From IMG/VR virus record IMGVR_UViG_3300042197_001558, positions 1 through 54,168 of that record: DNA of 54,168 bases. The stretch is one strand, 5' to 3'. The notes under the pieces were generated by a model. The model searched no databases. It saw only the letters and a list, made by a program, of their open reading frames with translations, and had not been told where the DNA came from. How positions within the stretch are numbered: the first letter of the stretch is position 1; each line of letters opens with the position of its first letter. The translations under genes were made by a program, and so were the position numbers. The stretch is from a virus (taxonomy: Duplodnaviria > Caudoviricetes). Shown piece after piece: positions 27,564 to 47,148 of this stretch.

Positions 27564-27824
27564 ATGAATCAAGAGCGAATCAAAGAACTAAAGCGCGAGG
27601 CTGAGGCTCTAGCCTATGAGGAACATAAGGCAAATTGTATCAAGAATGGTCGTGATACATCAATTCCTCACGCAAATGCGTTGAATATGACTTTTGAGAA
27701 ATTCGCCGGATTGATTGTGAAAGAGTGTGCTAAGTATGTCAAAAATACAAATTGCTTTACATATGCTAGTCAAGCAGACTTGTGTGCTGAAAGAATGAAA
27801 CAACATTTCGGAGTTGAAGAATGA
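27564..27824 (+). CDS. MNERI/HFGVEE family paralog
   Basis: MNQERIKEL..EKFAGLIVKECA..KQHFGVEE. Confidence 0.8.
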   Translation: MNQERIKELKREAEALAYEEHKANCIKNGRDTSIPHANALNMTFEKFAGLIVKECAKYVKNTNCFTYASQADLCAERMKQHFGVEE

Positions 27825-28000
27825 ATCTTTCTGATCTTACGCCTCAACAACTCAACACCATGCTCACCAACCTTCAGGATTTCGTTGATGGCGATTTCCA
27901 GTATGCTGAAGAAATCGTTGCCCAGACTGGTGTTGACATTGACCGAGCCCAGGAGATCCTTAGCAGCATCAACCTGCTCAAGTCCCTGAACCTCAAGTAA
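27821..28000 (+). CDS. hypothetical protein (59 aa)
   Basis: ATGA overlap; not in ORF track. Confidence 0.65.
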   Translation: MNLSDLTPQQLNTMLTNLQDFVDGDFQYAEEIVAQTGVDIDRAQEILSSINLLKSLNLK

Positions 28001-28012
28001 AAGGAAACTGAA

Positions 28013-28216
28013 ATGAATACTGTAACTGTGATCTTTGGTGCTATTGCCCTGCTGTTCATTGTAGCGGCCGTGATGAGTCTACCCGTGATGCTGTTGTGGG
28101 ACTGGCTCATGCCCGGCATCTTCGGCCTGCGCGAAATTACCTGGTTTGAAGCCTGGGGACTACTGTTTCTGTCTGGGCTGCTGTTCAAGAGTCACACTAC
28201 CACCAATAAGGACTAA
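28013..28216 (+). CDS. small two-TM membrane protein
   Basis: LLWDWLMPGIFGLREITWFEAWGL. Confidence 0.8.
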   Translation: MNTVTVIFGAIALLFIVAAVMSLPVMLLWDWLMPGIFGLREITWFEAWGLLFLSGLLFKSHTTTNKD

Positions 28217-28222
28217 ATCGTC

Positions 28223-28411
28223 ATGGCTACTCAACAACCCATCTTTCATTCAATTTATTATGTCTGGGATAATGCTAAGAATACTTTGACCCTACATAAT
28301 AAAACTATGCCAGAGGCTGAAAAAATTGCCGCTGAGTTTGGTTTTCGCCATCCATGTTGGTATCGTCCGAGCACTTGGTTCAATCGTCGTACTACTGTTA
28401 CTAATCATTGA
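28223..28411 (+). CDS. hypothetical protein
   Basis: SD present; stop lies inside the next -35 box. Confidence 0.65.
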   Translation: MATQQPIFHSIYYVWDNAKNTLTLHNKTMPEAEKIAAEFGFRHPCWYRPSTWFNRRTTVTNH

Positions 28412-28436
28412 CAAAAATTTCCAACTCTGTTATACT
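28408..28436 (+). promoter_or_regulatory. early promoter (class B)
   Basis: TTGACA-N17-TATACT. Confidence 0.85.
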
Positions 28437-28467
28437 TTCTTTGTTGTAGACGAACAAGGTGAACAGA

Positions 28468-28647
28468 ATGAATCTCCCGAACTGGTTGATCAATTTCTTC
28501 CGCGAAGAATTCAATGGTTCCCAAGTTGCCGTTCTCAATAACAACTGGTGGAAATACACTTCTATCAGTCTAAACAATAGCACTAGAGAACAACTGATGA
28601 CCGAAGCCAAAATTATTCTTTCTATGGTTCTTCAAGCAAAAAACTAA
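28468..28647 (+). CDS. hypothetical protein
   Basis: AAGGTG SD. Confidence 0.6.
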   Translation: MNLPNWLINFFREEFNGSQVAVLNNNWWKYTSISLNNSTREQLMTEAKIILSMVLQAKN

Positions 28648-28658
28648 AGGATATACAA

Positions 28659-28853
28659 ATGAATCGTATTCAAAAACTTGAACGTCTGCGCGATCTGGCA
28701 GATGAACTTAATCGTCTTCAACAAGAGTTGGCATCTGGCATGAATGTCTTAGATAGCCAGGTACATGAACGGCATACGATCCTAGAAGAAATTTGGGAAG
28801 ATGCTGAAGAAATGCTGAAATCTCTCAGTTTTTGGTCTACGGAAGATAAGTAA
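28659..28853 (+). CDS. hypothetical coiled-coil protein
   Basis: AAGGA SD. Confidence 0.65.
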   Translation: MNRIQKLERLRDLADELNRLQQELASGMNVLDSQVHERHTILEEIWEDAEEMLKSLSFWSTEDK

Positions 28854-28855
28854 TC

Positions 28856-29230
28856 ATGGGCACTCGTAGTTTTGTTGGCGTACAAATCGGTGATGTGATT
28901 CGTGCTGTTTATGTACATTTTGACGGTTATCTGGATGGGGTTGGTCAGGATCTTCAGGCATATACTACGCAAGAGGCAGTTGAAGAATTGATCAGCCACG
29001 GTGATCGTAGTTCACTGGATAGTGGATATTACCGAGATCGTGGCGAAACAGATGTTGATCCCAGTGACTATGGATCCTTTGAGGAATTTTTTGAGGCATG
29101 TGACGACTCATGGGGTGAATACTACTATCTATTCCGTGACGGGGTATGGTATTGTGGCAAAACTTACAGCAGTTCACCGCTATATCGTAAGCTGGTTCCC
29201 TATGCTGAAGTCATCTCTATGTCAAGTTGA
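28856..29230 (+). CDS. conserved phage protein (MGTR..YxHxDGY family)
   Basis: Motif and EYYYLF. Confidence 0.75.
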   Translation: MGTRSFVGVQIGDVIRAVYVHFDGYLDGVGQDLQAYTTQEAVEELISHGDRSSLDSGYYRDRGETDVDPSDYGSFEEFFEACDDSWGEYYYLFRDGVWYCGKTYSSSPLYRKLVPYAEVISMSS

Positions 29231-29255
29231 CAATAAATAGTGCCTGTAGTATACT
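29227..29255 (+). promoter_or_regulatory. early promoter (class D)
   Basis: TTGACA-N17-TATACT..TACAGTAGATAGAAAGG. Confidence 0.85.
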
Positions 29256-29286
29256 GTCTCTACAGTAGATAGAAAGGTAGCAGTAT

Positions 29287-29739
29287 ATGAAGAAGGGCGA
29301 AATGTTGGACAAGATGTTGGTAATTGCTACCAACGCTCACGCAGGTCAATTTGACCGTGGCGGAAATCCCTACATCCTGCACCCTCTTCGCGTGATGTCT
29401 TATCTCAATACTGATGACGAAGAACTGATGTGTACCGCCCTAGGGCACGATGTGATCGAGGATACCAAGGTCACCTATCGTGACCTGCGTGACGCAGGTA
29501 TCAGTGAGCGGGTTATTGCTGGTATTCGTGCTCTGACCAAACTGCCTGGGCAGACCTACGATGAATACAAGGAAGGTGTGTTCGCTAATATTGACGCTAT
29601 GCGTGTCAAGATGGCTGATCTTCGTCATAACACTGATATTCGTCGCCTCAAGGGTATTTCTGAAAAAGACATTGAGCGCATGGTCAAGTACCAAAAGTTT
29701 TATCTGGAACTTCAAGCAAGGCTGAATGATATGAATTGA
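29287..29739 (+). CDS. HD-domain RelA/SpoT-type hydrolase (small alarmone hydrolase-like)
   Basis: AHAGQFDRGGNPYILHPLRV, HDVIEDT, VKMADLRHN. Confidence 0.82.
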   Translation: MKKGEMLDKMLVIATNAHAGQFDRGGNPYILHPLRVMSYLNTDDEELMCTALGHDVIEDTKVTYRDLRDAGISERVIAGIRALTKLPGQTYDEYKEGVFANIDAMRVKMADLRHNTDIRRLKGISEKDIERMVKYQKFYLELQARLNDMN

Positions 29740-29764
29740 CAATAAATCAGAACACTGTTATACT
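29736..29764 (+). promoter_or_regulatory. early promoter
   Basis: TTGACA-N17-TATACT. Confidence 0.85.
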
Positions 29765-29797
29765 GTCTTTCTTGCGTTAAACAAAGGAGTGATTGAA

Positions 29798-29983
29798 ATG
29801 ATGAACTTTTACACCCAGGAAGAGTTTGAAGGTCAAATGGTCCAACTGATGGTTGCTGAAGGCGTTGATCGCCTAGAAGCATTCCGTATCGTGAGCCAGC
29901 GCGAACGGGCAGATGCCGCTGAGTATGAGCGTTGGCTGGATGCTCAAATTGCTGATCAGGAAATCTATCACGAGTTTGGTTGA
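29798..29983 (+). CDS. hypothetical protein
   Basis: AAGGAG SD. Confidence 0.7.
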   Translation: MMNFYTQEEFEGQMVQLMVAEGVDRLEAFRIVSQRERADAAEYERWLDAQIADQEIYHEFG

Positions 29984-29996
29984 TACGGTAACAGAG

Positions 29997-30025
29997 TTGA
30001 CAATAAATCGGCTCTGTTGTATACT
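29997..30025 (+). promoter_or_regulatory. early promoter (class D)
   Basis: TTGACA-N17-TATACT. Confidence 0.85.
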
Positions 30026-30055
30026 GTTCTTACAGTAGATAGAAAGGCAGTAATC

Positions 30056-30430
30056 ATGAAGCCCCGATTCTTTTTTGCTAGTTCTGACGTAGTGGTCATT
30101 GATCTCAATCCTGAGATGGCGGATTACGATAATCCGCGTGGCGAAATCTACGGTTACGCTACTTATGTCATAGCAGAAGATGAATGGGGGCATCGTTGCC
30201 GTCTTTATGTCGAGACATTGCCGTGTGGTTATGGAGAGCGGCGAGCAATGGAAGGTGCCCATCGCACAGCCAAGGCGCTCGTTGCTCGTCTTCAGTCTGG
30301 ACGTCTGCCTGTTGCTTTTGATCGATGGGAACCGATGACACCGGCTTACGGTAGCCATGCTTACATTGAAGAGGGTGGCGAAGATGATTTGATCGAATGG
30401 GAACGCCAGATGGACGAGGAGTACGCATGA
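30056..30430 (+). CDS. hypothetical protein
   Basis: PAYGS.AY motif; start follows the class D leader. Confidence 0.75.
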   Translation: MKPRFFFASSDVVVIDLNPEMADYDNPRGEIYGYATYVIAEDEWGHRCRLYVETLPCGYGERRAMEGAHRTAKALVARLQSGRLPVAFDRWEPMTPAYGSHAYIEEGGEDDLIEWERQMDEEYA

Positions 30431-30816
30431 GTGACGAAAATCGTCGTCAATTGATTAGTGATGGCATTGCCTTCATGCGATCAATCAGTGACCAATATGG
30501 CACAGAAACTGGTCTTCAACTGTGGGACAGGATCTGTGAAGTGTTGGATCCTAATGTCAAGGGTGAAATCTTTATTGCCATGTTGACTGGTGATACCAGA
30601 GCAAAATTGACTATCTCGTGTAGTTCAGTTCAATTTAGCACAAATAGGATCCCCCACATCAAGGCAATTCGTGAAGTGACTGGGCTTGGTCTTAAAGAGG
30701 CTAAGGATTTGAGTGATCTTATGTTCAATGGACAGCCGGTGTCTATTACTGTCAAAGAAGGACTTTCAAGGCAATATGCTAGAGATTTTCTAAGAGATGC
30801 TGGTCTTATTGTTTAA
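30427..30816 (+). CDS. protein with ribosomal bL12 C-terminal-like domain
   Basis: NRIPHIKAIREVTGLGLKEAKDL. Confidence 0.75.
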   Translation: MSDENRRQLISDGIAFMRSISDQYGTETGLQLWDRICEVLDPNVKGEIFIAMLTGDTRAKLTISCSSVQFSTNRIPHIKAIREVTGLGLKEAKDLSDLMFNGQPVSITVKEGLSRQYARDFLRDAGLIV

Positions 30817-30835
30817 TTTTTTGAAAGGTAAAAAA

Positions 30836-31051
30836 ATGTTTAAGTTGAATCGTGCTGCTGCTATCGAAACTGCCAAAGTTATTCTGTTTTCTATTGTAGT
30901 TGCTATTGCGACTGCACTGGTGGTGAATTTCGTGAGTATGGAATTTATCATGATCGGATTTTTGATTGCGGCATTCGGATTCTTGATCAAGATGATTTAT
31001 GATAATAATGTAGATCGTCAACAGTCATCTAAGTCTTCAAACGAGGAATAA
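30836..31051 (+). CDS. two-TM membrane protein
   Basis: Two hydrophobic helices; AAGGT SD. Confidence 0.7.
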   Translation: MFKLNRAAAIETAKVILFSIVVAIATALVVNFVSMEFIMIGFLIAAFGFLIKMIYDNNVDRQQSSKSSNEE

Positions 31052-31055
31052 CAAA

Positions 31056-31469
31056 ATGGAATTCATTGTAGAGGCAAAGTCTAATTCAGTGACAAAACAA
31101 TATATTGAGTCACTGATTCCATCACTGTTGTCTCAACTGAAACTTGGTAGAAGTCGTAAACTACTACATGTTATTCTGGACAAAGATCTAGCAGAACATG
31201 GGCTTACAATGGATATGACTGACGCGTCTGGGTCGTATTTGGTGGTCATTAGGCCAGACCGAAATCTAACAACAGTTGGTATGACACTAGCGCATGAGAT
31301 GGTACATGTCAAGCAGATGGCGTGTGGAATAATGAAGCATGGTAGTCGTGGTAGTGTGTACTGGCGTGGCAAGAAGTTTACTAAAAAGGTCAAGTATCTA
31401 GATTGTCCGTGGGAAATTCAGGCATTCAGTCGGCAAGAGATTTTGTTCCGTCGTGCTCTTGAGGCTTGA
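31056..31469 (+). CDS. HEXXH zinc metallopeptidase-like protein
   Basis: TLAHEMVHVKQ...PWEIQA. Confidence 0.75.
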   Translation: MEFIVEAKSNSVTKQYIESLIPSLLSQLKLGRSRKLLHVILDKDLAEHGLTMDMTDASGSYLVVIRPDRNLTTVGMTLAHEMVHVKQMACGIMKHGSRGSVYWRGKKFTKKVKYLDCPWEIQAFSRQEILFRRALEA

Positions 31470-31470
31470 T

Positions 31471-31499
31471 TTGACGATAAATCGCGGTAGTGCTATACT
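31471..31499 (+). promoter_or_regulatory. early promoter
   Basis: TTGACG-N17-TATACT. Confidence 0.85.
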
Positions 31500-31528
31500 G
31501 TGTTTGTTGTCGATACAAGGAGTCAGAT

Positions 31529-31786
31529 ATGAAGATCAAGTTCTACAGCGATCCCGGTCATGGTTGGGGTGCGGTCAAGCGCAAGGTTCTTGACGAACTG
31601 GGCATTGCCGATCAGATCACACCTTTCTCCTATCAGAAGGGTCAAACTGTCTATCTTGAGGAAGACTGCGATCTTTCCACTCTTGTCACCAAGTTGGCAC
31701 TGAATGGTGTCGTTGTTGAGTACGAACAACATAGCACGGAAGGGCGTAGTCCTATCCGTAGTTATGATCGTTTTTCCGCTACCTAA
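31529..31786 (+). CDS. conserved phage protein (DPGHGW..YLEEDCD)
   Basis: Motifs; AAGGAG SD. Confidence 0.75.
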   Translation: MKIKFYSDPGHGWGAVKRKVLDELGIADQITPFSYQKGQTVYLEEDCDLSTLVTKLALNGVVVEYEQHSTEGRSPIRSYDRFSAT

Positions 31787-31801
31787 CAAGGAGTTCAAAT
31801 C

Positions 31802-32032
31802 ATGAATACCGTTACTTATCGTGGTGTTGTGTATGATGCTCGTCATGGTGGTTCGTTCGACCGTGGCAGTTGTGACAGTTATTACCACCGTGTTTGCCGC
31901 CCGCACTTCTACACAGGGGCGACCTACTTTACCCAAGAAATCGTCCCTGAAAAGGGTAGTCCAGAATATTCTGCCTATATGGCTGGATATGAATATAATG
32001 AAGAATTGGGTGACAAGAAGGATTGGGATTAA
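31802..32032 (+). CDS. hypothetical protein
   Basis: HGGSFDRG..DSYY; AAGGAG SD. Confidence 0.75.
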   Translation: MNTVTYRGVVYDARHGGSFDRGSCDSYYHRVCRPHFYTGATYFTQEIVPEKGSPEYSAYMAGYEYNEELGDKKDWD

Positions 32033-32044
32033 TAACCATTAATC

Positions 32045-32080
32045 GATCCTCTTTGGACCATAAATAGGGCAGAGAGGATC
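32045..32080 (+). promoter_or_regulatory. late promoter inside an RBS-sequestering hairpin
   Basis: GATCCTCT...ATAAATA...AGAGGATC. Confidence 0.75.
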
Positions 32081-32086
32081 AATTAA

Positions 32087-32737
32087 ATGTCGTTATTAGT
32101 ATTAAATTTACCGCCTATTCACTGCTATATTCGTAAAGAATTTCTATATGATTTTCAACGAGGAGAAGGTGAATATGTTCCCTGTATCTGGGTTACTGCT
32201 AAATCAATTCGTGGCCAGGCCTTTCGTATAGAAGCATATATGCCAGAATATGGCGCACTATATGATAAATTGCCACTACATGCGTTTGTTTCTAGAACAG
32301 AAAATCTAGGTGAATTTTTACCACTGGACTATTTACAAATTTGGGATTGTTTTAGTCATCACGCTACTATCATTAAGAAAAGTTTTATAGGCAATTTATC
32401 AGCAAAATTCTTTGCGAAAAATAAATGTTGGTATGGCGGCAATTACTTATTTACCATTGATAATTGTAGTCCAGATCCAAATCTATTTGATACCAATTAC
32501 AGTGAATGGCCAGAAGATCATAAATCATTTAATTTCATAGAGTTGGACAATGGTCAATATGCGGCTCAGCCAAACAATCGTACACTATTCCTAGATCCTG
32601 CTAGTAATCCAAAAGAATTGCTATTTCCGGATTTCAAGGTATGTACCAAGACCTATCGTGTAGAACAGAATGCCAAGTGGGCACTGGGAGACACTGATAC
32701 CGTGATGTACACTGACCAAGAAAAATTTGACAAATAA
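32087..32737 (+). CDS. conserved late hypothetical protein
   Basis: NLPP..YIRKEFLY..QIWDCFS..AAQPNNR. Confidence 0.8.
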   Translation: MSLLVLNLPPIHCYIRKEFLYDFQRGEGEYVPCIWVTAKSIRGQAFRIEAYMPEYGALYDKLPLHAFVSRTENLGEFLPLDYLQIWDCFSHHATIIKKSFIGNLSAKFFAKNKCWYGGNYLFTIDNCSPDPNLFDTNYSEWPEDHKSFNFIELDNGQYAAQPNNRTLFLDPASNPKELLFPDFKVCTKTYRVEQNAKWALGDTDTVMYTDQEKFDK

Positions 32738-32755
32738 TCGTTCTTTTGTTATACT
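32727..32755 (+). promoter_or_regulatory. early promoter (class C)
   Basis: TTGACA-N17-TATACT-GTATTCACTGAAC. Confidence 0.85.
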
Positions 32756-32785
32756 GTATTCACTGAACGAAACGAGGTAAACAAA

Positions 32786-33028
32786 GTGTCTCAGATCAAA
32801 GTCGGTGATATTGTGAAGAGCCTGGACTTCAATGGCATTGATTCCTGCTACATGATTGGCAAGGTTGTCGGCATTCATTTTGACGGTACTTTCCGAGCAA
32901 AGTTTATTAAGCGTGTTTGGGAAGGTGTTGAAGATCGCAAGTTTAAGACTGATTTCTTCACGGCGCCTCAGCAAGGTCAACAAATGTTTGACAAGCCTGA
33001 ATTTCCCCGTGTAGTCGTTATCGGTTGA
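32786..33028 (+). CDS. hypothetical protein
   Basis: GAGG SD; GTG start. Confidence 0.75.
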   Translation: MSQIKVGDIVKSLDFNGIDSCYMIGKVVGIHFDGTFRAKFIKRVWEGVEDRKFKTDFFTAPQQGQQMFDKPEFPRVVVIG

Positions 33029-33053
33029 CAATAATTCCTACACCTGCTATACT
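33025..33053 (+). promoter_or_regulatory. early promoter (class C)
   Basis: TTGACA-N17-TATACT. Confidence 0.85.
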
Positions 33054-33083
33054 GTATTCACTGAACAAAACGAGGTAAACAAA

Positions 33084-33494
33084 ATGGCTTACGTTTCCCA
33101 GGCTGACAAGACAAAGATCGCCGCGCAAATCAAGCCCTTGCTCAAGAAGTATGGCGTCAAGGGTACTCTGAGCATTCGTAATCACAGCACTATCGTTCTG
33201 ACCTTGAAGTCCGGCAAGATCGATTTTATCGGTAATAGTAACCGTGTCTGTGCTAAGTCTGGCCGTATGAACAACGGTTGGCAACCCAACACCAGCGGTA
33301 ATGCTAGCGTTAATCGCTATTGGTTCCATGAGCACTACGACGGTGCAGCCAAGGCTTTCCTTACCGAGGCATACAAGGCGCTGATGTCTGCCGATTGGTA
33401 CGATAATAGTGATGCTATGACCGACTACTTCAATACGGCGTATTACATGGATATCAATATCGGCAAGTGGGATAAGCCCTACATTGTTGAATAA
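33084..33494 (+). CDS. conserved phage protein (DNSDAMTDYF motif)
   Basis: Motif; GAGG SD. Confidence 0.75.
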   Translation: MAYVSQADKTKIAAQIKPLLKKYGVKGTLSIRNHSTIVLTLKSGKIDFIGNSNRVCAKSGRMNNGWQPNTSGNASVNRYWFHEHYDGAAKAFLTEAYKALMSADWYDNSDAMTDYFNTAYYMDINIGKWDKPYIVE

Positions 33495-33526
33495 TCTTTT
33501 CAAATAACTTGTAAAAATAACCTAAC

Positions 33527-38660: not shown

Positions 38661-38852
38661 ATGATTAAAGTCATAACTAATAGCCAGGGTAGCGGCGATT
38701 GGATTGTGGTAGTGGATACCAACACTGGTGAAACTCTGTTCCAAGGTCATCGTATCACACCTCTAGACCTGGTGCAAATTCTGTCGTTTGACAACAGTAT
38801 CAAGGCAGAGTTGGTAGAGGTCACTGACGAGGAAATGGAAGAAAACTACTGA
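38661..38852 (+). CDS. hypothetical protein
   Basis: Single-gene cassette between promoters. Confidence 0.75.
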   Translation: MIKVITNSQGSGDWIVVVDTNTGETLFQGHRITPLDLVQILSFDNSIKAELVEVTDEEMEENY

Positions 38853-38853
38853 T

Positions 38854-38882
38854 TTGACAGAAATTCCCAACTCTGTTATACT
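38854..38882 (+). promoter_or_regulatory. early promoter (class A)
   Basis: TTGACA-N17-TATACT. Confidence 0.85.
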
Positions 38883-38914
38883 GTATTCACTGAGTTAGAC
38901 AACACACGGAGAAG

Positions 38915-39732: not shown

Positions 39733-39739
39733 TTCACAA

Positions 39740-39964: not shown

Positions 39965-40130
39965 TACTTACGAAGTAAAAGCATGGGATCATGCTGTTGA
40001 TAGCGATCACTATTATTGGTTGGAGATTTACAGAGGAGAAAGTTTGTTTAAGTCGTTATACTATCTTTGGTGGTGCCGAAAGAATGGTTGGAAACATATT
40101 AGACTAGAGTACCGCCCTTGGAATTGGTGA
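39954..40130 (+). CDS. hypothetical protein (58 aa)
   Basis: MMGNTYEVKAW...; not in ORF track. Confidence 0.6.
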   Translation: MMGNTYEVKAWDHAVDSDHYYWLEIYRGESLFKSLYYLWWCRKNGWKHIRLEYRPWNW

Positions 40131-40135
40131 ACAAT

Positions 40136-40600
40136 ATGAGAATGATTTGTAATAAAGCCGGATTGACTTATTGGGCAGATACTGACAATAATGATACAGT
40201 ATTAAGTCCATACTTTGAAGATGAAGAAGATGCCATACAGTGGTATGGTCGTGTGGCTCAAATTATGTTTGAGGAATTTGATGTCAATAATCAAGGCATT
40301 GTAGATGCGATTGATAGATGTAGAAATAGTTTCGGAGTTAAAAAAATGAACCAAAGATTTAATGCCCACGACTTGTGGACTCGGGTTTGTCAGGAAGAAA
40401 TGCCAGAGTTGGATGAGAGTTGTATGACCATGCAACGTACTAGAAAGTTCGCCGAGTTGCTTGTGCGGGAATGTGTTGAACAAGGTAAACAAATTCAATC
40501 TCAATCAGTCTCCAATGGTTCAGAAGAATACAACACCGGCAGAGAGATGGGCATTGAAGTTTTTCTGAATCAGATTAAAAAGCATTTCGGAGTAGAGTGA
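40136..40600 (+). CDS. apparent fusion of an LSPxF family gene and an MNERI/HFGVEE paralog
   Basis: ..NSFGVKK|MNQR.. joined through an A7 run; second ATG at 40346. Confidence 0.65.
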   Translation: MRMICNKAGLTYWADTDNNDTVLSPYFEDEEDAIQWYGRVAQIMFEEFDVNNQGIVDAIDRCRNSFGVKKMNQRFNAHDLWTRVCQEEMPELDESCMTMQRTRKFAELLVRECVEQGKQIQSQSVSNGSEEYNTGREMGIEVFLNQIKKHFGVE

Positions 40601-40794
40601 TGGGGTACGGCGAACCGGGTTGGGAATGGGATACTAAAGAACAAATAGATATGTTCGATGAATATGTTAAAGAAACCGCAGACCTCAGAGATAGACCCAG
40701 AAACTTTGAAGCACTGGGATATGACGAAGCAGAATGGGAAGCCTTCTGCTATGGTTGGAACGCCGCTAAAAAGCATTTTGGAGTTAAAGAATGA
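40597..40794 (+). CDS. hypothetical protein with HFGVKE tail
   Basis: Shares only the 3' anchor of the family. Confidence 0.7.
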   Translation: MMGYGEPGWEWDTKEQIDMFDEYVKETADLRDRPRNFEALGYDEAEWEAFCYGWNAAKKHFGVKE

Positions 40795-41012
40795 ACGAAA
40801 GAATCCGACTATTTGCTGAACAGGCTGGCGCTGTCACGTTTGGCGGTAAGATTTGTTTGTTTGGCGATCAAGATATTGAAAAGTTCGCCAAGTTGATTGC
40901 CAAGCAATGTATGGATCTTGTCAAGGATTGTTACGCAGAGCCTGGGCTATCCTTGTATCAAAGTGTATGTGCCTCAACAATCATTGAAGAACACTTCGGA
41001 GTTGAAGAATAA
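40791..41012 (+). CDS. MNERI/HFGVEE family paralog
   Basis: MNERIRLFA..EKFAKLIAKQC..EEHFGVEE. Confidence 0.8.
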   Translation: MNERIRLFAEQAGAVTFGGKICLFGDQDIEKFAKLIAKQCMDLVKDCYAEPGLSLYQSVCASTIIEEHFGVEE

Positions 41013-41039
41013 ACATTATAATGGCAACGAGAGACGAAA

Positions 41040-41324
41040 ATGAATGAAAAAACTTACATAGTACAACCTAAATTAAAAAATAATGTGAGGCAAGAAGTAA
41101 TCGACTGGTGTTATCAACAATTTGGTGATCCCCATAAAGGGCAAGGAGATGAAGAATATCATGATTGGTCAATAACCAGTAATTATACAAGAGATATAGA
41201 TGCAGATTTTGATTTTAAGTGCGTAAATGAAAAAGATGCGATCTGGTTTGTTATGAAATATGGTGGCGATATGCATATTAAAGAACAGTTTGACATTAAA
41301 AAATATTTTGACTTTGAAGAATGA
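41040..41324 (+). CDS. hypothetical protein (WC..FG..EKDAIWF..K)
   Basis: Intact ORF. Confidence 0.7.
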   Translation: MNEKTYIVQPKLKNNVRQEVIDWCYQQFGDPHKGQGDEEYHDWSITSNYTRDIDADFDFKCVNEKDAIWFVMKYGGDMHIKEQFDIKKYFDFEE

Positions 41325-41554
41325 AAACCTATAAATTTCGTCCAAGTGATCCATATACACTAAAAGTTCGTAGACAATTAAAGATAGCATATCCTAAAGA
41401 ACTTTCCAATAGATATGTTCGTCATTGGCATCTTTGTCATATTGTGCGAGTTGGTGGGCATCTACACTATCTTGCCGATCACGCACCGTCTCCAATTCGA
41501 AAGAAGTGGAAACCAGTATTCAAGAAATTCATTCAACGACATCGTAAATTTTAA
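41321..41554 (+). CDS. basic hypothetical protein
   Basis: ATGA overlap. Confidence 0.65.
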   Translation: MKTYKFRPSDPYTLKVRRQLKIAYPKELSNRYVRHWHLCHIVRVGGHLHYLADHAPSPIRKKWKPVFKKFIQRHRKF

Positions 41555-41563
41555 GGAATAAAA

Positions 41564-41977
41564 ATGAGAATCGGTAACCCACTAGAAGCACTTGCCCAAT
41601 CCCTTGCCCACGCTCAGTATGAGGGCTTTGGTGAAGTAGAATATGAGGACCGCGATTGGGAACACTATCGCAAAACCAAAGAAGATCGTAGGATCAAAAA
41701 AACCCGTAAACACTCAGCATACGATATCAGTGTTTACTCAATGTTCCCCCAATCGTGGAGTTCAACCGCACTGGGTTTTGGTGGAATTGGTGGTCAAGCA
41801 ATAACTCCAGCATATACCGTCATTGTTGAATCTGATCATACGGGTGAATACTGTGTATACTTTGGTGGTCGATTTGCCTACCGTGTTAAAAGTCTTACTC
41901 AAAAGTTTCGGGATGATGTTGCTAGGCAATATATGGCAGAAGTAAGTGAGGCACACAAATATGAAACCAGTAATTGA
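41564..41977 (+). CDS. conserved phage protein (FPQSWSSTALGFGG)
   Basis: Motif; AAGGA SD. Confidence 0.8.
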   Translation: MRIGNPLEALAQSLAHAQYEGFGEVEYEDRDWEHYRKTKEDRRIKKTRKHSAYDISVYSMFPQSWSSTALGFGGIGGQAITPAYTVIVESDHTGEYCVYFGGRFAYRVKSLTQKFRDDVARQYMAEVSEAHKYETSN

Positions 41978-42221
41978 TTTAGCAGTAGAAGGTTTGAAGA
42001 GTGGTGGTGTACCACATGCTGAAACATTTAGGGTATTTTTTGAACAGGTATATCACTGTGGATATAGTGATGCGGTACGAGATTTAGACAATAAACGGGT
42101 ATATTCTGATCAAGAAAAGTCATATCATGGATGTCGTGTTTGTGGTATAGGCAGCGATGGTCGAGCGTATGGTTATGTTTGTCCACGTAGTGATTGTCCT
42201 ACCCGTGTGACCTGTACTTGA
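41961..42221 (+). CDS. hypothetical protein with C-terminal Cys cluster
   Basis: CRVCG..CPRSDCP. Confidence 0.7.
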   Translation: MKPVIDLAVEGLKSGGVPHAETFRVFFEQVYHCGYSDAVRDLDNKRVYSDQEKSYHGCRVCGIGSDGRAYGYVCPRSDCPTRVTCT

Positions 42222-42246
42222 CGATAAATTCGGGTTCTGTTATACT
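42218..42246 (+). promoter_or_regulatory. early promoter (class B)
   Basis: TTGACG-N17-TATACT. Confidence 0.85.
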
Positions 42247-42274
42247 GTATTTGTTGTAGCGAAAAGGACCCATC

Positions 42275-42520
42275 ATGATTAACAACAATTCTTCTGTTAC
42301 CTCTATTGTAGTAAAATATACTTGGCGAGAATTGACCAATGAAGGTCTAATGCCAATTCAATATACTGGTTATTCATTTAGAGGATATGGGACACTTTTG
42401 TTTGATGATGTATATGATAGCGAGGAAGATGCTATCTCGGATTTCCTAGATCATTTCAAAAATAATAAGTATATTCACCCCCAATACGTATTGATCAAAG
42501 TATATGGCAAGTGTGAATAA
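42275..42520 (+). CDS. hypothetical protein
   Basis: AAGGA SD. Confidence 0.7.
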   Translation: MINNNSSVTSIVVKYTWRELTNEGLMPIQYTGYSFRGYGTLLFDDVYDSEEDAISDFLDHFKNNKYIHPQYVLIKVYGKCE

Positions 42521-42531
42521 TAACCCCACAC

Positions 42532-42560
42532 TTGACCTAGTTATTGTTGTGTGCTACAGT
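42532..42560 (+). promoter_or_regulatory. possible early promoter
   Basis: TTGACC-N17-TACAGT. Confidence 0.55.
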
Positions 42561-42581
42561 ACATGCATTGGAGGTTAGATC

Positions 42582-42986
42582 ATGAATATGAGGATCAAGG
42601 ATTTTTACGAGCAGGGTGAGGATGTTCTTATTGAACACATTAATGGTAGTTATTACCATTATACCCGTAATCTACTGAATAGTCTGGATGATTCTCCAGC
42701 AGTTCGTTTGCCAGACGGAACTAGACTATGGTATAATTGGGGTAAACTTCATCGAGAAGGTGGTCCTGCTGTTATATGGACGAATGGCTCTAAATGGTGG
42801 TATACTCATGGTAAGCAAGATCGAGTAGATGGCCCAGCAGTCGAATGGGCCAATGGCGATAAGGAATGGTATATCAATGACATTAAATTGACCGAGGAAG
42901 AATTCAATAAACAAACACAGAAAAGCACCTGCGAAAATCGTACTGTAATTATAGACGGTGTTGCCTATAAACTCGTCAAGGAATAA
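42582..42986 (+). CDS. LHRxDGPA-repeat protein, copy 1
   Basis: LHREGGPAV, DRVDGPAVE. Confidence 0.8.
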   Translation: MNMRIKDFYEQGEDVLIEHINGSYYHYTRNLLNSLDDSPAVRLPDGTRLWYNWGKLHREGGPAVIWTNGSKWWYTHGKQDRVDGPAVEWANGDKEWYINDIKLTEEEFNKQTQKSTCENRTVIIDGVAYKLVKE

Positions 42987-42990
42987 TAGT

Positions 42991-43019
42991 TTGACAGAAA
43001 TTCCCACACCTGTTATACT
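42991..43019 (+). promoter_or_regulatory. early promoter (class B)
   Basis: TTGACA-N17-TATACT; leader identical to the 42218 promoter. Confidence 0.85.
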
Positions 43020-43047
43020 GTATTTGTTGTAGCGAAAAGGACCCATC

Positions 43048-43284
43048 ATGCTTAAGCCTAAAACTATCAATCTCCTCATGAATCTGAATTCCACGGCAAT
43101 CAATATCTGTGCCATCGAAAACGGTTATCGTGACGCTAATTTTCATCAGACTGAGTTTGTTGGAATCACAGGGGATCTTAATTTTTGTTACAAGGTGCGG
43201 TTCAAAGAAGATGGCGAATGGCAAACCTGCCAGGTTTATTTGAAGAAGAACACTGAAACCGGCAAAATTCAGTTTGAATTCTGA
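43048..43284 (+). CDS. hypothetical protein
   Basis: Single-gene cassette. Confidence 0.75.
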   Translation: MLKPKTINLLMNLNSTAINICAIENGYRDANFHQTEFVGITGDLNFCYKVRFKEDGEWQTCQVYLKKNTETGKIQFEF

Positions 43285-43291
43285 AAGTGAT

Positions 43292-43320
43292 TTGACACTA
43301 TTTAAGAATAGTGTTATACT
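43292..43320 (+). promoter_or_regulatory. early promoter (class A)
   Basis: TTGACA-N17-TATACT. Confidence 0.85.
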
Positions 43321-43356
43321 GTATTCACTGAGTTAGACAACACACGGAGAAGTGAA

Positions 43357-43572
43357 ATGAACGAACGAATTCGTGAACTTGCTAAACAATGCACCTACGA
43401 ATATGATGACGACTTTGGAAAGCCGCATAACGACTTTGATTATGAAAAGTTCGCCAAGTTGATTGCCAAGGAATGTGCGACTGCCATTATTAATGACCGC
43501 CGATTGAATGATGTTAGAAGTGCGGCTAACGGATGTGTAAGAACCATTAATGAACATTTCGGAGTGGAATAA
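43357..43572 (+). CDS. MNERI/HFGVEE family paralog
   Basis: MNERIRELA..EKFAKLIAKEC..EHFGVE. Confidence 0.8.
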   Translation: MNERIRELAKQCTYEYDDDFGKPHNDFDYEKFAKLIAKECATAIINDRRLNDVRSAANGCVRTINEHFGVE

Positions 43573-43817
43573 TGAACCAACGAGTTTTTGATATGGCCCG
43601 ACAATCGGGTGCCACAGATGAAAAAGGTAGCCGTGCTGAACATGTATTTTGTTTCACTAAAGATGAACTAAAAGGGTTCACCCAAACAATTATCCAAGAC
43701 ATTTTGACTGTTGTCAAAAGTGAACACAAATTGGCACTAGAATTTCAATGGGATGCTGATGACACTGCCATCGCAATTCGTGATGCTATCAAGAAACGGT
43801 TTGGAGTTGCGGAATGA
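43572..43817 (+). CDS. MNERI/HFGVEE family paralog (divergent)
   Basis: MNQRVFDMA..IKKRFGVAE. Confidence 0.75.
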   Translation: MNQRVFDMARQSGATDEKGSRAEHVFCFTKDELKGFTQTIIQDILTVVKSEHKLALEFQWDADDTAIAIRDAIKKRFGVAE

Positions 43818-44047
43818 AGGTTTATCTAGTATGTGAAACGGTTGATCTAGGATATCATGTTGTTGCAGGATATCTTTCAGAAAATCGTGCTAGAGTGGAG
43901 ATGGAGAAATTAAATGAGGAAGCCTTCCAACAAAAAGTTCAAGATTTGATGGAAATCGGTTATAATAAGGAAAATGCCGAAAAGTATGCCCGGCAACTAC
44001 ATTATTACGGACTTTACGAACTAGCCGAAGTGGATGTTGAAGAATGA
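43814..44047 (+). CDS. hypothetical protein
   Basis: ATGA overlap. Confidence 0.7.
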   Translation: MKVYLVCETVDLGYHVVAGYLSENRARVEMEKLNEEAFQQKVQDLMEIGYNKENAEKYARQLHYYGLYELAEVDVEE

Positions 44048-44054
44048 TGTGTAA

Positions 44055-44083
44055 TTGACAATAATTGCCGATTCTGTTATACT
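44055..44083 (+). promoter_or_regulatory. early promoter (class A)
   Basis: TTGACA-N17-TATACT. Confidence 0.85.
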
Positions 44084-44116
44084 GTATTCACTGAGTTAGA
44101 CAACACGGAGAAGATC

Positions 44117-44308
44117 ATGCTGTATCCCGCGAACTATGATCATCGTATCTCTTGGCTGGAATACGAAGAGTGGTTGGGTATGTTTGTAGAGAAGAGTTTC
44201 AAGACCGTGTCTGATGCTGTGGATCTGCATGTGGCCAGTCTTCGTCGGCGTGAATATGATTCCGCTGGTAATCAAAACATCACTCGCATCCGTGTGGAGA
44301 AGATTTAA
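44117..44308 (+). CDS. hypothetical protein
   Basis: GGAG SD. Confidence 0.7.
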   Translation: MLYPANYDHRISWLEYEEWLGMFVEKSFKTVSDAVDLHVASLRRREYDSAGNQNITRIRVEKI

Positions 44309-44511
44309 TGATTCACTTCTTGAACATCACCATCCAGTGTAAGGGATCATATGATTTCCGTGCTTTCTTGGATTGGGCCGACGATCAGTCCATGACCCGA
44401 TATCAATTGCGTGGGTATGGAGAAACTCCGGGCAAGGCTGCTGATGATGCTTGGAAGAAATACAACGGTGACCGTGATTCGTATATCAGTGACGAACAGG
44501 TGTGGAAATGA
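44308..44511 (+). CDS. hypothetical protein
   Basis: TAATG overlap. Confidence 0.7.
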   Translation: MIHFLNITIQCKGSYDFRAFLDWADDQSMTRYQLRGYGETPGKAADDAWKKYNGDRDSYISDEQVWK

Positions 44512-44747
44512 ACGAACGATTTGCCAACAACAAGATCTATCTTCTGGCCAAAGAGGCTGGGTTGATTGAATTTGAAAAGTTGACCTGGAATCCTGAATTA
44601 CAATCTCCTACATATGAAAGTGTAGCCAAGGCAAGAAAATTTGCCGAGTTGTTGATTCGACAATGTGCTACAATAGCAGATCAAGCAGAACCTTACAAGG
44701 CCAACGATTTAATTCTAAAACATTTCGGAGTTGACAAAAATTCTTGA
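44508..44747 (+). CDS. MNERI/HFGVEE family paralog
   Basis: MNERF..RKFAELLIRQCA..LKHFGVD. Confidence 0.8.
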   Translation: MNERFANNKIYLLAKEAGLIEFEKLTWNPELQSPTYESVAKARKFAELLIRQCATIADQAEPYKANDLILKHFGVDKNS

Positions 44748-44759
44748 AGATGCTATACT
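44731..44759 (+). promoter_or_regulatory. early promoter embedded in HFGVD codons
   Basis: GGAG-TTGACA-N17-TATACT. Confidence 0.85.
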
Positions 44760-44774
44760 AGCATAAATAAACAA

Positions 44775-44825
44775 AACAGGCAGATAGACTTCCTGTTATC
44801 AACAAATAGAAAGGATTTTTCTATG
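44775..44825 (+). promoter_or_regulatory. candidate cis-regulatory leader (GATAGAC hairpin and RBS hairpin), copy 1
   Basis: AACAGG-CA-GATAGAC-TT-CCTGTT; ATAGAAA-GGATT-TTTCTAT(G). Confidence 0.65.
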
Positions 44826-45140
44826 TCTACGGTTACTGAAATTGCCGCTGAAATTGCGCGGCGCAAGCAAGAACTTGCCGAACTTGAAACTCAACTTGAG
44901 GTCGCTAAAACCGAACCCGACGATTATCGTCTGGCTCGTGAACTCCATACCTTGCTGTGTAAGTGGAATCATACCGACGGTTGTGGCTGGTATTATGAAT
45001 TCAAAGACAAACAAGATGTATGGACTGGTGATGCTCATTACCGATATTTGACCAAGGCTCGTAGGTTGACCCATCAGTGTCAAACTAAAAACATTAGCAC
45101 TCAAGATGCTATTGAAATTTTCAAGATGGTCAAGGAATAA
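44823..45140 (+). CDS. hypothetical protein (LH..LC.WNHTDGCGWYYE)
   Basis: Motif; intact ORF. Confidence 0.75.
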   Translation: MSTVTEIAAEIARRKQELAELETQLEVAKTEPDDYRLARELHTLLCKWNHTDGCGWYYEFKDKQDVWTGDAHYRYLTKARRLTHQCQTKNISTQDAIEIFKMVKE

Positions 45141-45143
45141 ATC

Positions 45144-45527
45144 ATGGAAACTTATACCGTAAAAGTTTATGAAAATGGTACTCGTCATTGGTATCAAAAT
45201 GATAAACTTCATAGACTAGACGGCCCCGCAGTTGAAAGTTCCATTGGTACCAATGAATGGTATCAAAATGGTCTACGACATCGAGAGGATGGCCCAGCAG
45301 TTGAATATACAGATGGCCATTGTTTTTGGTATCAAAATGGTAAACTCCATCGTCTAGATGGACCAGCAGTTGATCATACCAACGATGATCAAACTTGGTG
45401 TCATTCTTGGTGGATCGAAGGAAAACAATTTACCGAAAAAGAATTCCTTAAAAAGATCAAAAAAACCACCTGCGAAAATCTTACTGTAATTATCGACGGT
45501 ATCAAATACAAACTGGTCAAGGAATAA
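45144..45527 (+). CDS. LHRxDGPA-repeat protein, copy 2
   Basis: Three WYQN.xHRxDGPAV repeats; flanked by 20-bp direct repeats. Confidence 0.8.
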   Translation: METYTVKVYENGTRHWYQNDKLHRLDGPAVESSIGTNEWYQNGLRHREDGPAVEYTDGHCFWYQNGKLHRLDGPAVDHTNDDQTWCHSWWIEGKQFTEKEFLKKIKKTTCENLTVIIDGIKYKLVKE

Positions 45528-45530
45528 ATC

Positions 45531-46562
45531 ATGTCTAAGAAGTATGATACACTTGTATTCGTGGCGCGACTACAACCCATACATAACGCCCATGTAACAA
45601 TTATCAAGATGGCCATGGCAATGGCTCGTCAGGTAATTGTTATTGTGGGCAGTGCTCATCAAGCCCGTACCTTCAAGAATCCATTCACCAGCCATGAGCG
45701 TGAATGTATGATCATTGATGCCCTGCGTGATACCGAAGAAGAATACGATTGTAGCCTGCGTATTGAACATAATATTGATACCATCTACAACGATCAGGCC
45801 TGGATGATCCGTGTCCAACAACTGGTAGGCAAACATACACTGGGCATGACCAAGATTGGACTGATTGGACATGACAAGGACGAAAGCAGTTTCTATCTCA
45901 AGTGGTTCCCGACTTGGGCCCGTGAAGAAGTAGAACTGCTGGAGCCACTGAATGCTACAAACATTCGTGATCTATATTTCCGGCGTGATGTCAATCTAAA
46001 GTTTTTGGAGCGTGTTGTACCAGCAAGCACACTCAACACACTGGCTAACTTCATGACCACGCCAGCATTTGAACAAATTGTTCGTGAGCGTGAATTCATC
46101 GCACAGTACCGTAAGCAATATGAAAGCCTACCATATCCGCCCATCTTTGTTACAGCGGATGCCGTGGTAATCCAAAATGGTCATGTGCTAATGATCAAGC
46201 GTCGTAGTGAACCTGGTCGTGGGTTGTGGGCATTGCCTGGTGGATTTGTCAATGCTCGTAGTGACCGTAGCGTGGAGGATGCTGCTATTCGTGAACTGCG
46301 TGAAGAAACTGGTATCAAGGTTCCTGTGCCCGTGTTGCGTGGTAGCATTGTGCGTAGTAAGGTGTTTGATGCGGTGGAACGAAGTGCCCGTGGTCGTACA
46401 ATTACACATGCCTATTTCATTGTGTTGACAGGTGAAGAATTGCCTAAGGTCAAGGGTGCCGATGATGCTGAAAAGGCTCGTTGGGTTCCTATTGCCGAAG
46501 TCAAGAGTGATGAATGCTTTGAGGATCATTGGGAAATTATTCAACATTTTGTAGGAGCTTGA
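45531..46562 (+). CDS. nadM: bifunctional NMN adenylyltransferase/ADP-ribose pyrophosphatase (NadM-Nudix)
   Basis: RLQPIHNAH, VGS..KNPF, Nudix box GGFV..AAIRELREETG. Confidence 0.92.
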   Translation: MSKKYDTLVFVARLQPIHNAHVTIIKMAMAMARQVIVIVGSAHQARTFKNPFTSHERECMIIDALRDTEEEYDCSLRIEHNIDTIYNDQAWMIRVQQLVGKHTLGMTKIGLIGHDKDESSFYLKWFPTWAREEVELLEPLNATNIRDLYFRRDVNLKFLERVVPASTLNTLANFMTTPAFEQIVREREFIAQYRKQYESLPYPPIFVTADAVVIQNGHVLMIKRRSEPGRGLWALPGGFVNARSDRSVEDAAIRELREETGIKVPVPVLRGSIVRSKVFDAVERSARGRTITHAYFIVLTGEELPKVKGADDAEKARWVPIAEVKSDECFEDHWEIIQHFVGA

Positions 46563-46564
46563 AG

Positions 46565-46927
46565 ATGCCGTGTCGTGATTACTATGATGATCATCCTGAA
46601 AAATATTTCAAGGATGTTACTGAGCCTGCGCTAAAGAAACAGATTGCTTTTGCTGAAAGTGCGCTATGTCAAACATTGGCAGATTTTGAGCGAGTTTTAA
46701 CTGCCTTACATGAGGCACATCCTGATATCTATGAACTATCTCCGAAACCACTTGATCATATTAACTATACAGAAGCAGGCATCACTCGTAAGGAACTTGA
46801 ACGGTGGTGGAAGCAGCATAAGAAGTTGGATGCACAGCATCGTGAAGCAGAGCGGCTAAAGAAGATCAGAGAATCTGCACTGTCTAAACTCAGTGAAGAA
46901 GAAAGAAAGGTATTGGGAGTAAATTAA
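46565..46927 (+). CDS. hypothetical protein (MPC..WW..H...D family)
   Basis: AGGAG SD; ends ALSKLSEEERKVLG, like the 26357 gene. Confidence 0.75.
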   Translation: MPCRDYYDDHPEKYFKDVTEPALKKQIAFAESALCQTLADFERVLTALHEAHPDIYELSPKPLDHINYTEAGITRKELERWWKQHKKLDAQHREAERLKKIRESALSKLSEEERKVLGVN

Positions 46928-47148
46928 TGAAGGAACGAATCCGTGACCTACAAATTCAAGCCTTTGCTGAATGTAAAACATTCGAGGACAATAAGGTTAG
47001 AACTGATGAAGTGTTTGAACGATTTGCCGAACTAATTGTGCGGGAATGTTGCGACATTGCCTATGAACATGACGCACCAAAAATGAGTGGTCCTGGTATG
47101 ATTATTGCCGGTAGGATCAAACAACATTTTGAAGTTGAAAATGATTAA
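46927..47148 (+). CDS. MNERI/HFGVEE family paralog
   Basis: MKERIRDL..ERFAELIVREC..IKQHFEVE. Confidence 0.8.
   Translation: MKERIRDLQIQAFAECKTFEDNKVRTDEVFERFAELIVRECCDIAYEHDAPKMSGPGMIIAGRIKQHFEVEND

Follow-up and report, generated by a model that had tools for sequence, protein, structure and literature searches.

The 54,168-nt IMG/VR virus record IMGVR_UViG_3300042197_001558, analyzed over its whole length and hereafter called the window, encodes eight full and two divergent copies of a protein of about 70 amino acids (aa), all of them on the plus strand in the list of open reading frames (ORFs). In this protein three short constant stretches, the N anchor (MNERI..), the mid anchor (EKFAELIVREC) and the C anchor (HFGVEE), alternate with an N-variable and a C-variable segment. 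Our results suggest, with a probability that we put at about 60%, that the copies are real, translated early genes of a large uncultured phage, and that they belong to a family in which the variable segments are shuffled as cassettes and the C anchor serves both the protein and the expression of the next gene. As judged from the sequence comparisons, which show the pattern clearly, homologous recombination appears to swap the cassettes between paralogs and between phages, with the 33-nt mid anchor as the site of crossover. CheckV gives the record a completeness of 18%, so the phage genome must be much larger than the window.

An alignment of the ten units gave the consensus MNERIxxLAxxA...EKFAELIxxEC...IKxHFGVE, and the stretches between the anchors could not be aligned. 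A profile built from the copies matched the window at exactly these ten units and nowhere else (E 5e-27 to 1.5e-12). At the DNA level the N motif was found six times at up to two mismatches and the C motif eight times, where 0.65 and 0.50 occurrences are expected. A previous sequence-only reading of the window had pointed out these copies and described conserved DNA anchors around segments that look unrelated; each copy is present as a plus-strand ORF at the position it gave, and its picture of the anchors holds. It had also taken the genes at 40136 and 40597 for tails without a body. These genes do derive from the family, but both match the profile and are divergent members rather than bare tails.

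Reassortment of the variable segments was analyzed in 274 sequences (266 database proteins and eight window copies) that were split at the anchors. Of these, 261 could be parsed, 256 of them distinct; the 13 sequences that were dropped included two-unit fusions and c27564 (copies are named here after their start positions). The results showed a clear discordance between the two halves of the protein. N segments were at least 60% identical in 206 pairs, and in 176 of these the C segments were less than 30% identical; conversely, C segments were at least 60% identical in 2158 pairs, with less than 30% identity between the N segments in 1967. Both halves reached 60% in only 22 pairs; the source databases are clustered (at 90% or 50% identity), which thins out pairs with similarity in both halves but cannot produce discordant ones. 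The segment identities were bimodal with few intermediates. Single-linkage clustering at 50% divided the 256 proteins into 178 N and 116 C clusters, where 36 of 39 multi-member N clusters were tied to two or more C clusters and all 25 multi-member C clusters to two or more N clusters. Eleven pairs of N clusters share at least two C clusters, so that each of the four possible combinations is represented. For c46927 alone, the N cassette occurs with nine C types, among them those of c40791 and c44508.

The position of the exchange points was determined at the DNA level in 206 members, from 120 IMG/VR loci and the window. In pairs with the same N and different C cassettes, similarity ended 28-33 nt into the 33-nt mid anchor in 29 of 39 cases, and in pairs with the same C and different N cassettes it ended 26-34 nt back from the end of that anchor in 25 of 34. 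The recombination-diversified scaffold proposed in the sequence-only reading is thereby supported both by the reassortment of the segments and by breakpoints at the edges of the mid anchor. The exact 27-nt match that it saw between the mid anchors of c40791 and c43357 extends to 36 of 39 nt with an exact core of 28 nt, between unrelated flanks. These two copies have a variant, FAKLIAK, that was found in no other of the 266 proteins and 206 locus members, and the nearest cassette relatives of both carry the canonical FAELIV[RK]. A private variant with an exact core and unrelated flanks indicates at least one anchor-limited gene conversion within the window genome.

The cassettes, 11-33 aa (N) and 15-36 aa (C) in length, are coding and, as estimated from substitution patterns, under purifying selection. 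By the Nei-Gojobori method the ratio of nonsynonymous to synonymous substitution rates (dN/dS) was 0.12 within shared N cassettes (36 pairs, synonymous rate dS 0.76) and 0.11 within shared C cassettes (37 pairs, dS 1.03). The core of the mid anchor was confined to family genes, in frame in 235 of 235 cases, and of 263 matches to the core of the N anchor, 255 fell within such genes.

Codon use in the anchors was compared with a background taken from the same loci, namely their variable segments and long ORFs, and the pattern used to search the loci permitted all synonymous codons. The anchors proved to be fixed for codons that this background does not prefer. In the N anchor these are AAC for N2 (86% in the anchor, 32-39% in the background), CGA for R4 (90%, 12-18%) and CTT for L8 (73%, 17%). 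In the mid anchor they are AAG for K (88%, 35%), TTC for F (80%, 17-30%), GCC for A (83%, 18-20%), GAG for E (87%, 21-25%), TTG for L (85%, 24-32%) and CGG for R (59%, 6-9%), and in the C anchor GGA for G (93%, 24-25%) and GTT for V (91%, 37-41%). The 18-nt core of the mid anchor thus reads AAG TTC GCC GAG TTG ATT. Positions at the anchor edges, such as G13, were at background frequency. Among 20875 pairs of members from different loci, both cassettes were unrelated in 19140 and both were shared in only 2, so redundancy in the data is not the cause of the codon identity. In the 19140 pairs, codon identity at identical residues was 0.695 in the N, 0.730 in the mid and 0.777 in the C anchor, compared with expected values of 0.433, 0.488 and 0.521, and within shared cassettes it was 0.67-0.72. 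Hence, anchors of members whose cassettes cannot be aligned are no less similar at silent sites than cassettes that share an ancestor, which fits ongoing exchange rather than old divergence; the synonymous sites of the anchors are unsaturated. An overlapping gene was rejected as the reason for the fixed codons, as the antisense frames were open in 28, 14 and 1 of the 206 members and the other sense frames in none. What maintains the biased codons of the N and mid anchors is probably repeated recombination or conversion, selection for recombinability, or a combination of the two.

The C anchor has a further function that can be read from its codons, TTC GGA GTT GAA GAA TGA, which evidently hold a Shine-Dalgarno (SD) sequence and the overlapping start of the next gene and, in a minority variant, the -35 box of a predicted sigma70 promoter. 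Of the 206 members, 185 have GGAG within the F-G-V codons. The stop codon is overlapped by the next start as ATGA in 155 members, as TAATG or TGATG in 17 and by a GTG or TTG start in 13, and 21 are arranged in some other way or end in a long tail. A coupled downstream start was found in 183 of 206; 56 of these downstream genes are themselves family members, and BLAST sorts the products of the other 127, small proteins, into 117 clusters. The junction module GGAGTTGAAGAATGA, at up to two mismatches and with ATGA kept, ends 258 ORFs in 121 sources, compared with 4 in a shuffle, and 74 of the 258 are not detected by the family profile, many of them unrelated small proteins ending in ..[FYL]GVEE. 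The double duty of the C anchor accounts both for its fixed codons and for the same junction ending unrelated small genes. The -35 box, TTGACA, is formed by the codons GTT GAC A and lies 17 nt 5' of TATACT in c38918 (39120-39148) and c44508 (44731-44759); a promoter motif TTGAC-N16-18-TAYAHT starts in 5 of 206 C anchors, these two included, and in none of the N and mid anchors. ATG is the start codon of each of the 206 parsed copies and is preceded by a consensus GGAG at -11 to -8 in which each base reaches 53-64%. An upstream promoter was rejected as a general feature of the family, as the motif was found within 120 nt upstream in just 8 of 202 members elsewhere.

Both expression signals had been assigned to the 3' anchor in the sequence-only reading, and they are borne out at four window junctions (coupling) and in two window copies (-35 box). 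Its alternative idea, a self-propagating junction element, applies to the 3' junction, which also ends the 74 non-family ORFs, and fails for the mid anchor, which keeps to family genes, and for the N anchor, which nearly always does. As a separate observation, the mid-anchor core TTCGCCGAGTTGA and the C junction TTCGGAGTTGA differ by a 2-nt indel (e.g. 40445-40462 and 27807-27820), and FAEL could, in a post-hoc view, be a frameshifted relic of the FGVE junction, i.e. of an ancient fusion of two mini-genes.

Structures of two copies were predicted with AlphaFold2 (AF2) from family alignments, with a mean predicted local distance difference test score (pLDDT) of 88.6 and a predicted template modelling score (pTM) of 0.77 for c46927, and of 91.2 and 0.73 for c43357. 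Both models have the order helix, beta-hairpin, helix, helix: helices 3-15, 26-48 and 56-68 with a short hairpin in c46927, and helices 3-10, 29-45, 48-51 and 53-68 with strands 13-17 and 23-27 in c43357. In the models the N anchor corresponds to helix 1, the mid anchor to the first half of helix 2 and the C anchor to the end of helix 3 and the tail, while the N-variable segment forms the hairpin and the C-variable segment the end of helix 2, a turn or loop and the start of helix 3. From the conserved pattern of hydrophobic residues, the three anchors probably pack together as a conserved core. The proteins are acidic, with a mean net charge of -5.9 and a median pI of 4.84 (n=236). A cysteine stands 5-9 residues ahead of HFGV in 70 of 236 members and, with C41 and H67, could be a candidate metal ligand. 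In BFVD only uncharacterized proteins were retrieved (template modelling score 0.6-0.8), nearly all labelled 'uncultured Caudovirales phage', and the matches in the ESM Atlas were all to viral clusters without a name.

The family is very large and unnamed, without an entry in Pfam, PHROGs or NCBIfam, and no member in a cultured phage and no clear match to a solved structure were found for it. A database clustered at 90% identity holds at least 7937 family matches at E<=1e-3 (7937 of 8000 scored candidates), and an exhaustive profile search of 50%-cluster representatives gave 6787 matches at E<=1e-3, of which 590 reached E<=1e-10. Two or more copies were present in 84 of 121 sources by profile matches. 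Five large records contain 2-12 copies each, with 7 in a 100%-complete record of 348.7 kb. The window is only distantly related to these records, with one protein at 41-43% identity over its C-terminal part and, in another record, an RNA ligase at 50%. Pfam gave no match above cut-off for the ten window copies and, for 142 members, none above the curated cut-offs, with chance-level single-member hits to SPACA7 (E 0.0024) and Phage_TAC_5 (E 0.0069). PHROGs gave none at E<=0.001 for the window copies and 0 of 142 members, NCBIfam no family match, and the sequence profile search of the PDB nothing below E 0.26. In INPHARED phages, megablast with 38000-47500 and tblastn with c46927 at E<=1e-3 were empty, and tblastn with the member P0022 at E<=1 returned two chance-level rows (E 0.4-0.5). 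A degenerate mid-anchor pattern had 12 matches in 185,579 species genomes, all on short contigs of metagenome-assembled genomes from several phyla. Literature searches by the motif strings of the family and by keywords found no description of it. As observations on individual relatives, P0007, P0101 and P0214 have a CxxC-rich C-terminal extension of about 35 aa after HFGVE, which looks like a fusion with a small zinc-ribbon-like downstream ORF via stop loss, and two-unit fusions like that in ORF 40118-40600 also occur among relatives (e.g. P0001).

Coordinates of the family copies, anchor repeats, junctions and promoter-leader cassettes in the window
Feature	Position	Strand	Remarks
c27564, 86 aa, C cassette 'YVKNTNCFTYASQADLCAERM'	27564..27824	+	promoter 27502-27530 upstream; stop overlaps ATG of ORF 27821-28000
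c38918, tail HFGVDTNS	38915/38918-39136	+	promoter 38854-38882 upstream
Two units in one frame	ORF 40118..40600	+	divergent unit 40136-40345 (tail SFGVKK) runs without a stop into c40346 (40346-40600)
Divergent member, tail HFGVKE, without N anchor	40597..40794	+	coupled at both ends: GTGA start, ATGA junction to c40791
c40791, C cassette 'MDLVKDCYAEPGLSLYQSVCASTI'	40791..41012	+	mid anchor 40872-40910, private FAKLIAK variant
c43357, C cassette 'TAIINDRRLNDVRSAANGCVRT'	43357..43572	+	promoter 43292-43320 upstream; mid anchor 43438-43476; TAATG coupling to c43572
c43572, divergent mid anchor (GFTQTIIQDI)	43572..43817	+	ATGA junction to ORF 43814-44047
c44508, tail HFGVDKNS	44508..44747	+	C anchor is -35 box of promoter 44731-44759
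c46927, C cassette 'DIAYEHDAPKMSGPGMIIAGR', tail HFEVEND	46927..47148	+	copy modelled with AF2
Mid-anchor DNA repeat, 7 copies	27702-27728, 39020-39046, 40448-40474, 40884-40910, 43450-43476, 44640-44666, 47023-47049	+	repeat search
Junction module GGAGTTGAAGAATGA	27810..27824	+	SD in G-V codons, 7-nt spacer, next ATG over stop
Further GGAGTTGAAGAATGA junction copies	40780-40794, 43561-43575, 43803-43817	+	
Non-family junction look-alikes	41310-41324, 44033-44047	+	
Promoter-leader cassette TTGACA-N17-TATACT-GTATTCACTGAGTTAGACAACAC	38850..38902 and others, 12 copies, 27498-44106	+	repeat search

The copies lie in a region of accessory genes. The window encodes a NadV-like nicotinamide phosphoribosyltransferase (47548-48918), an NMNAT-Nudix fusion (45531-46562) and an NAD synthase (8910-9869), and further a thiamine pyrophosphate enzyme, an aminotransferase, an RNA ligase, a protein of the sugar epimerase/dehydratase family (GDP_Man_Dehyd/Epimerase), an HD domain protein and an SPFH protein. 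Amid the NAD-salvage genes there is also a 139-aa protein (30397-30816) with a ribosomal L7/L12 C-terminal domain (PF00542, E 2.2e-8). Promoter-like sites of the form TTGAC-N16-18-TATAMT were found 27 times, all on the plus strand and between 7.9 and 44.8 kb, where 0.38 are expected; to judge from this motif, the run of host-sigma70-type sites would mark a long series of transcription units, presumably early ones. The promoter-leader cassette is 53-80 nt long and stands directly 5' of c27564, c38918, c43357 and ORF 44117, and the depth of contigs from other sequencing runs is maximal on the cassette at 44055-44111. Parts of the window were recovered in 24 runs from 14 studies, labelled mostly as freshwater, lake or aquatic metagenome, and the comparison of the window with contigs of other runs covered four of these. 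In two metatranscriptome libraries there are contigs over c44508 (44542-44728 with 5 differences and 44458-44718 with 9), for which DNA carry-over is possible, and over the remaining copies the contigs from RNA libraries are anchor-sized pieces only.

Other repeated genes were observed in the same region. A second paralog family at 36442-38061, with proteins ending in ..RRAIVRAAAEIGRNM[TK] and repeats at 36849-36909, 37154-37214 and 38001-38061, has a conserved 61-nt 3' end with an SD (GGAAGGA) and an ATGA overlap to the next gene; its third tail copy is out of frame with the long ORF 37668-38039, which suggests a frameshifted or broken copy. The ORFs 42582-42986 and 45144-45527 encode paralogous proteins of 127-134 aa with internal 69-nt repeats (YxNGxLHRxDGPAV-like) and a common 120-nt 3' end, and Pfam gave no match at E<=0.001 for 45144-45524.

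Variable minicassettes between conserved stretches that guide homologous recombination or gene conversion are found in the pilE/pilS system of Neisseria, and the cassettes of the present family are likewise separated by conserved stretches that appear to guide recombination. In contrast to pilE/pilS, the family has no division into an expressed locus and silent copies, every copy having its own SD and start, and its diversity is spread across the phage population rather than arising by programmed clonal switching. The copies do not behave as silent pilS-type donors either, since those of the window lie in promoter-driven operons and all 206 parsed copies have an ATG. Nor do the variable segments resemble the targets of diversity-generating retroelements, as they differ in length and cannot be aligned between types; no template-like repeat was present among the window repeats, and no search aimed at reverse transcriptase was made. 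Coupling through an ATGA stop/start overlap is common in phage and bacterial operons, and the family shares with it an SD in the 3' end of the upstream gene and a start that overlaps the stop. What differs is that one 15-nt junction is reused so strictly that a common G-V-E-E C-terminus is fixed on the family and on unrelated proteins.

The closest parallel described in phages is given by the promoter-early stem-loops (PeSLs) of T4-type phages, which are reported as intergenic cassettes of a promoter and a stem-loop terminator that take part in modular shuffling of hyperplastic regions (Arbiol et al. 2010, PMC2839356; Comeau et al. 2014, PMC4122927). PeSLs and the family anchors are alike in being short conserved repeats that run through regions of small non-essential early genes, in being points of exchange between otherwise unrelated sequences, which in the family are seen as cassette discordance and breakpoints at anchor edges, and in providing a downstream ORFan with expression signals (sigma70 promoter, SD, start codon). 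By the same accounts PeSLs are intergenic, whereas the three anchors lie inside ORFs and encode a protein core, half-genes are swapped instead of whole genes, and a promoter is found in just 5 of 206 C anchors. Terminator-like sites in 38000-47600 numbered 10, compared with 6.4 in shuffles, and none is at an anchor; one (40830-40847) lies within the N-variable segment of c40791. The mechanism is thus kin to the known recombination at conserved short sequences in plastic regions of phages, here within genes and in an unnamed family. Independently of the family, the promoter-leader cassette of the window (TTGACA-N17-TGTTATACT-GTATTCACTGAGTTAGACAACAC-GGAG) was observed to be PeSL-like, without an obvious stem-loop.

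The anchors could also be nucleic-acid elements in the first place, expression or recombination modules (a coupling junction, a promoter, a coding counterpart of PeSLs) for which the small ORF is a tolerated carrier or a leader that drives the translation of any ORFan placed downstream. We give this a minor, though not a negligible, chance. It would account for the excess of junction-ending ORFs over the shuffle (258 to 4) with 74 of them outside the family, for the 127 coupled downstream ORFs in 117 clusters and for anchor codons fixed counter to local preference. Predicted duplexes between the N and mid anchors are, moreover, slightly more stable than those of composition-preserving shuffles (-13.1 vs -10.9 kcal/mol; mid-C -9.6 vs -8.0), differences whose p-values overstate the effect since the members are not independent. 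The duplexes have no common scheme, however, the commonest pairing being found in 3 of 120 sampled members, and the folding energy of the whole gene is almost unaltered when the anchors are recoded (-52.9 vs -51.8). Also against this explanation stand a cassette dN/dS of about 0.11, two high-confidence AF2 folds, a mid-anchor core that never leaves the frame of family genes and anchor residues conserved as amino acids over 6787 clusters. On a related point, GAAC/GTTC words were observed to recur in complementary sense in the 120 sampled members, the N anchor having GAACTT and the mid anchor AAGTTC.

An improbable explanation is that the proteins are packaged in the capsid and ejected with the DNA, the N anchor being a leader that resembles the capsid-targeting sequence (CTS) and the bodies injected anti-restriction factors. 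Residues I-x-E at positions 5-7 would, as we assume, fit the site of the T4 prohead protease; the E at position 7 is present in only 128 of 206 members. No part of the protein is more specific to the family than the N anchor. As a leader shared by diverse proteins it is conserved, with M in 206, N in 203, E in 161, R in 181, I in 187 and L8 in 186 of the 206 members, and a T4-type major capsid gene (Pfam Gp23) was found in two of the five large carrier records, one of them the 348.7-kb record (gp23 E 5e-99 and 1.7e-97). A study of T-even internal proteins describes a diverse defence set that shares only the CTS, that is, a constant short N-terminal segment on highly diverse bodies in phages with T4-type capsids, and attributes the diversity to an arms race with host defence (PMC3012670). 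Set against that account, the family has three constant segments instead of a leader alone, together with two independently reassorting cassettes in 2-12 copies per record, and in the window its genes stand behind sigma70-type promoters amid accessory genes.

Two remaining explanations have hardly any probability left. Ordinary old paralogs, with anchors kept by protein constraint and variable parts diverged beyond recognition, would agree with anchor residues that suit a small helical core and with a non-zero anchor dS (0.59-0.89), and are refuted by the reassortment and the codon data, namely the discordant pairs (176/206 and 1967/2158), the four-gamete combinations, the bimodal identities with few intermediates and an anchor codon identity of 0.70-0.78 vs 0.43-0.52 expected, in non-preferred codons. 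Nor is the mosaic at all likely to be an artefact of short-read assemblers joining paralogs at repeated anchors: all relatives are metagenomic and many contigs of other runs stop or diverge at the anchor edges 43356, 43388, 43443 and 43476, but members with a cassette in common diverge at about 30% of synonymous positions as well as at some residues and are thus not identical templates joined anew, a given combination can be found on several contigs (P0016 on 15, P0043 on 9, P0020 on 8), and anchors of 33 nt are probably shorter than usual reads.

Taken together, we favor the reading of a cassette-shuffled family of translated early genes. In this mechanism the constant anchors would form a conserved core, with the hairpin and the helix 2/3 region as independent cassettes under purifying selection; paralogs and phages would trade half-gene cassettes by crossovers in the mid anchor; the C anchor would double as ribosome-binding site, and occasionally as promoter, of the next gene; and the family may supply early-expressed binders in many combinations against host targets that vary, e.g. 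in defence or takeover. The hints that point to such an early binder or anti-defence role are three: acidity, promoters of the early type and diversification in multiple copies. More tentatively, and as a possibility that we would not bet on, the anchors may be selected coding crossover sites and the family a generator of combinatorial diversity at the level of the population, in which early binders track host targets and the 3' anchor wires in ORFans.

Several observations weigh against the favored reading. The relatives all come from metagenome assemblies, in which repeats can cause chimeric joins, an unlikely source of the pattern since shared cassettes differ at a third of synonymous positions (identity 0.67-0.72, dS 0.76-1.03). 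The codon counts cover 206 of 358 profile matches, the other 152 having been dropped by the motif parser. The anchors are not frozen outright, with a dS of 0.89 (N), 0.83 (mid) and 0.59 (C), and codon identity between the window copies and one member from another locus (L041) is only 0.53. The status as early genes applies only to the window, given the promoter motif in 8 of 202 members elsewhere. A structural gene is absent from the gene set of the window, a record that is 18% complete, and only two of the five large carrier records hold the T4-type capsid gene, so that the window phage may, at most presumptively, be called T4-type. Finally, Foldseek against the PDB gave no match at E<=0.001 for either AF2 model, and the best Z scores in a wide search with VIA, 6.0 and 4.7, were generic helical matches.

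With at least 6787 clusters at 50% identity, the family represents a sizeable part of viral dark matter, and its three motifs now give a means to define it. The modular shuffling known from T4-type phages takes place between genes, and here it appears to act inside a gene of 210 nt at an anchor of 33 nt. A question of long standing thereby becomes directly measurable, namely what is the shortest tract of homology used by natural phage populations, and whether such tracts are selected. The G-V-E-E tail is a clean case of a ribosome-binding site that shapes the C termini of unrelated genes. If the proteins inhibit host systems, the natural library of N and C combinations would be a ready source of specific binders, and if the family is indeed a generator of diversity, it would be a phage counterpart of cassette-based antigenic variation, in large uncultured phages of which at least some have a T4-type capsid.

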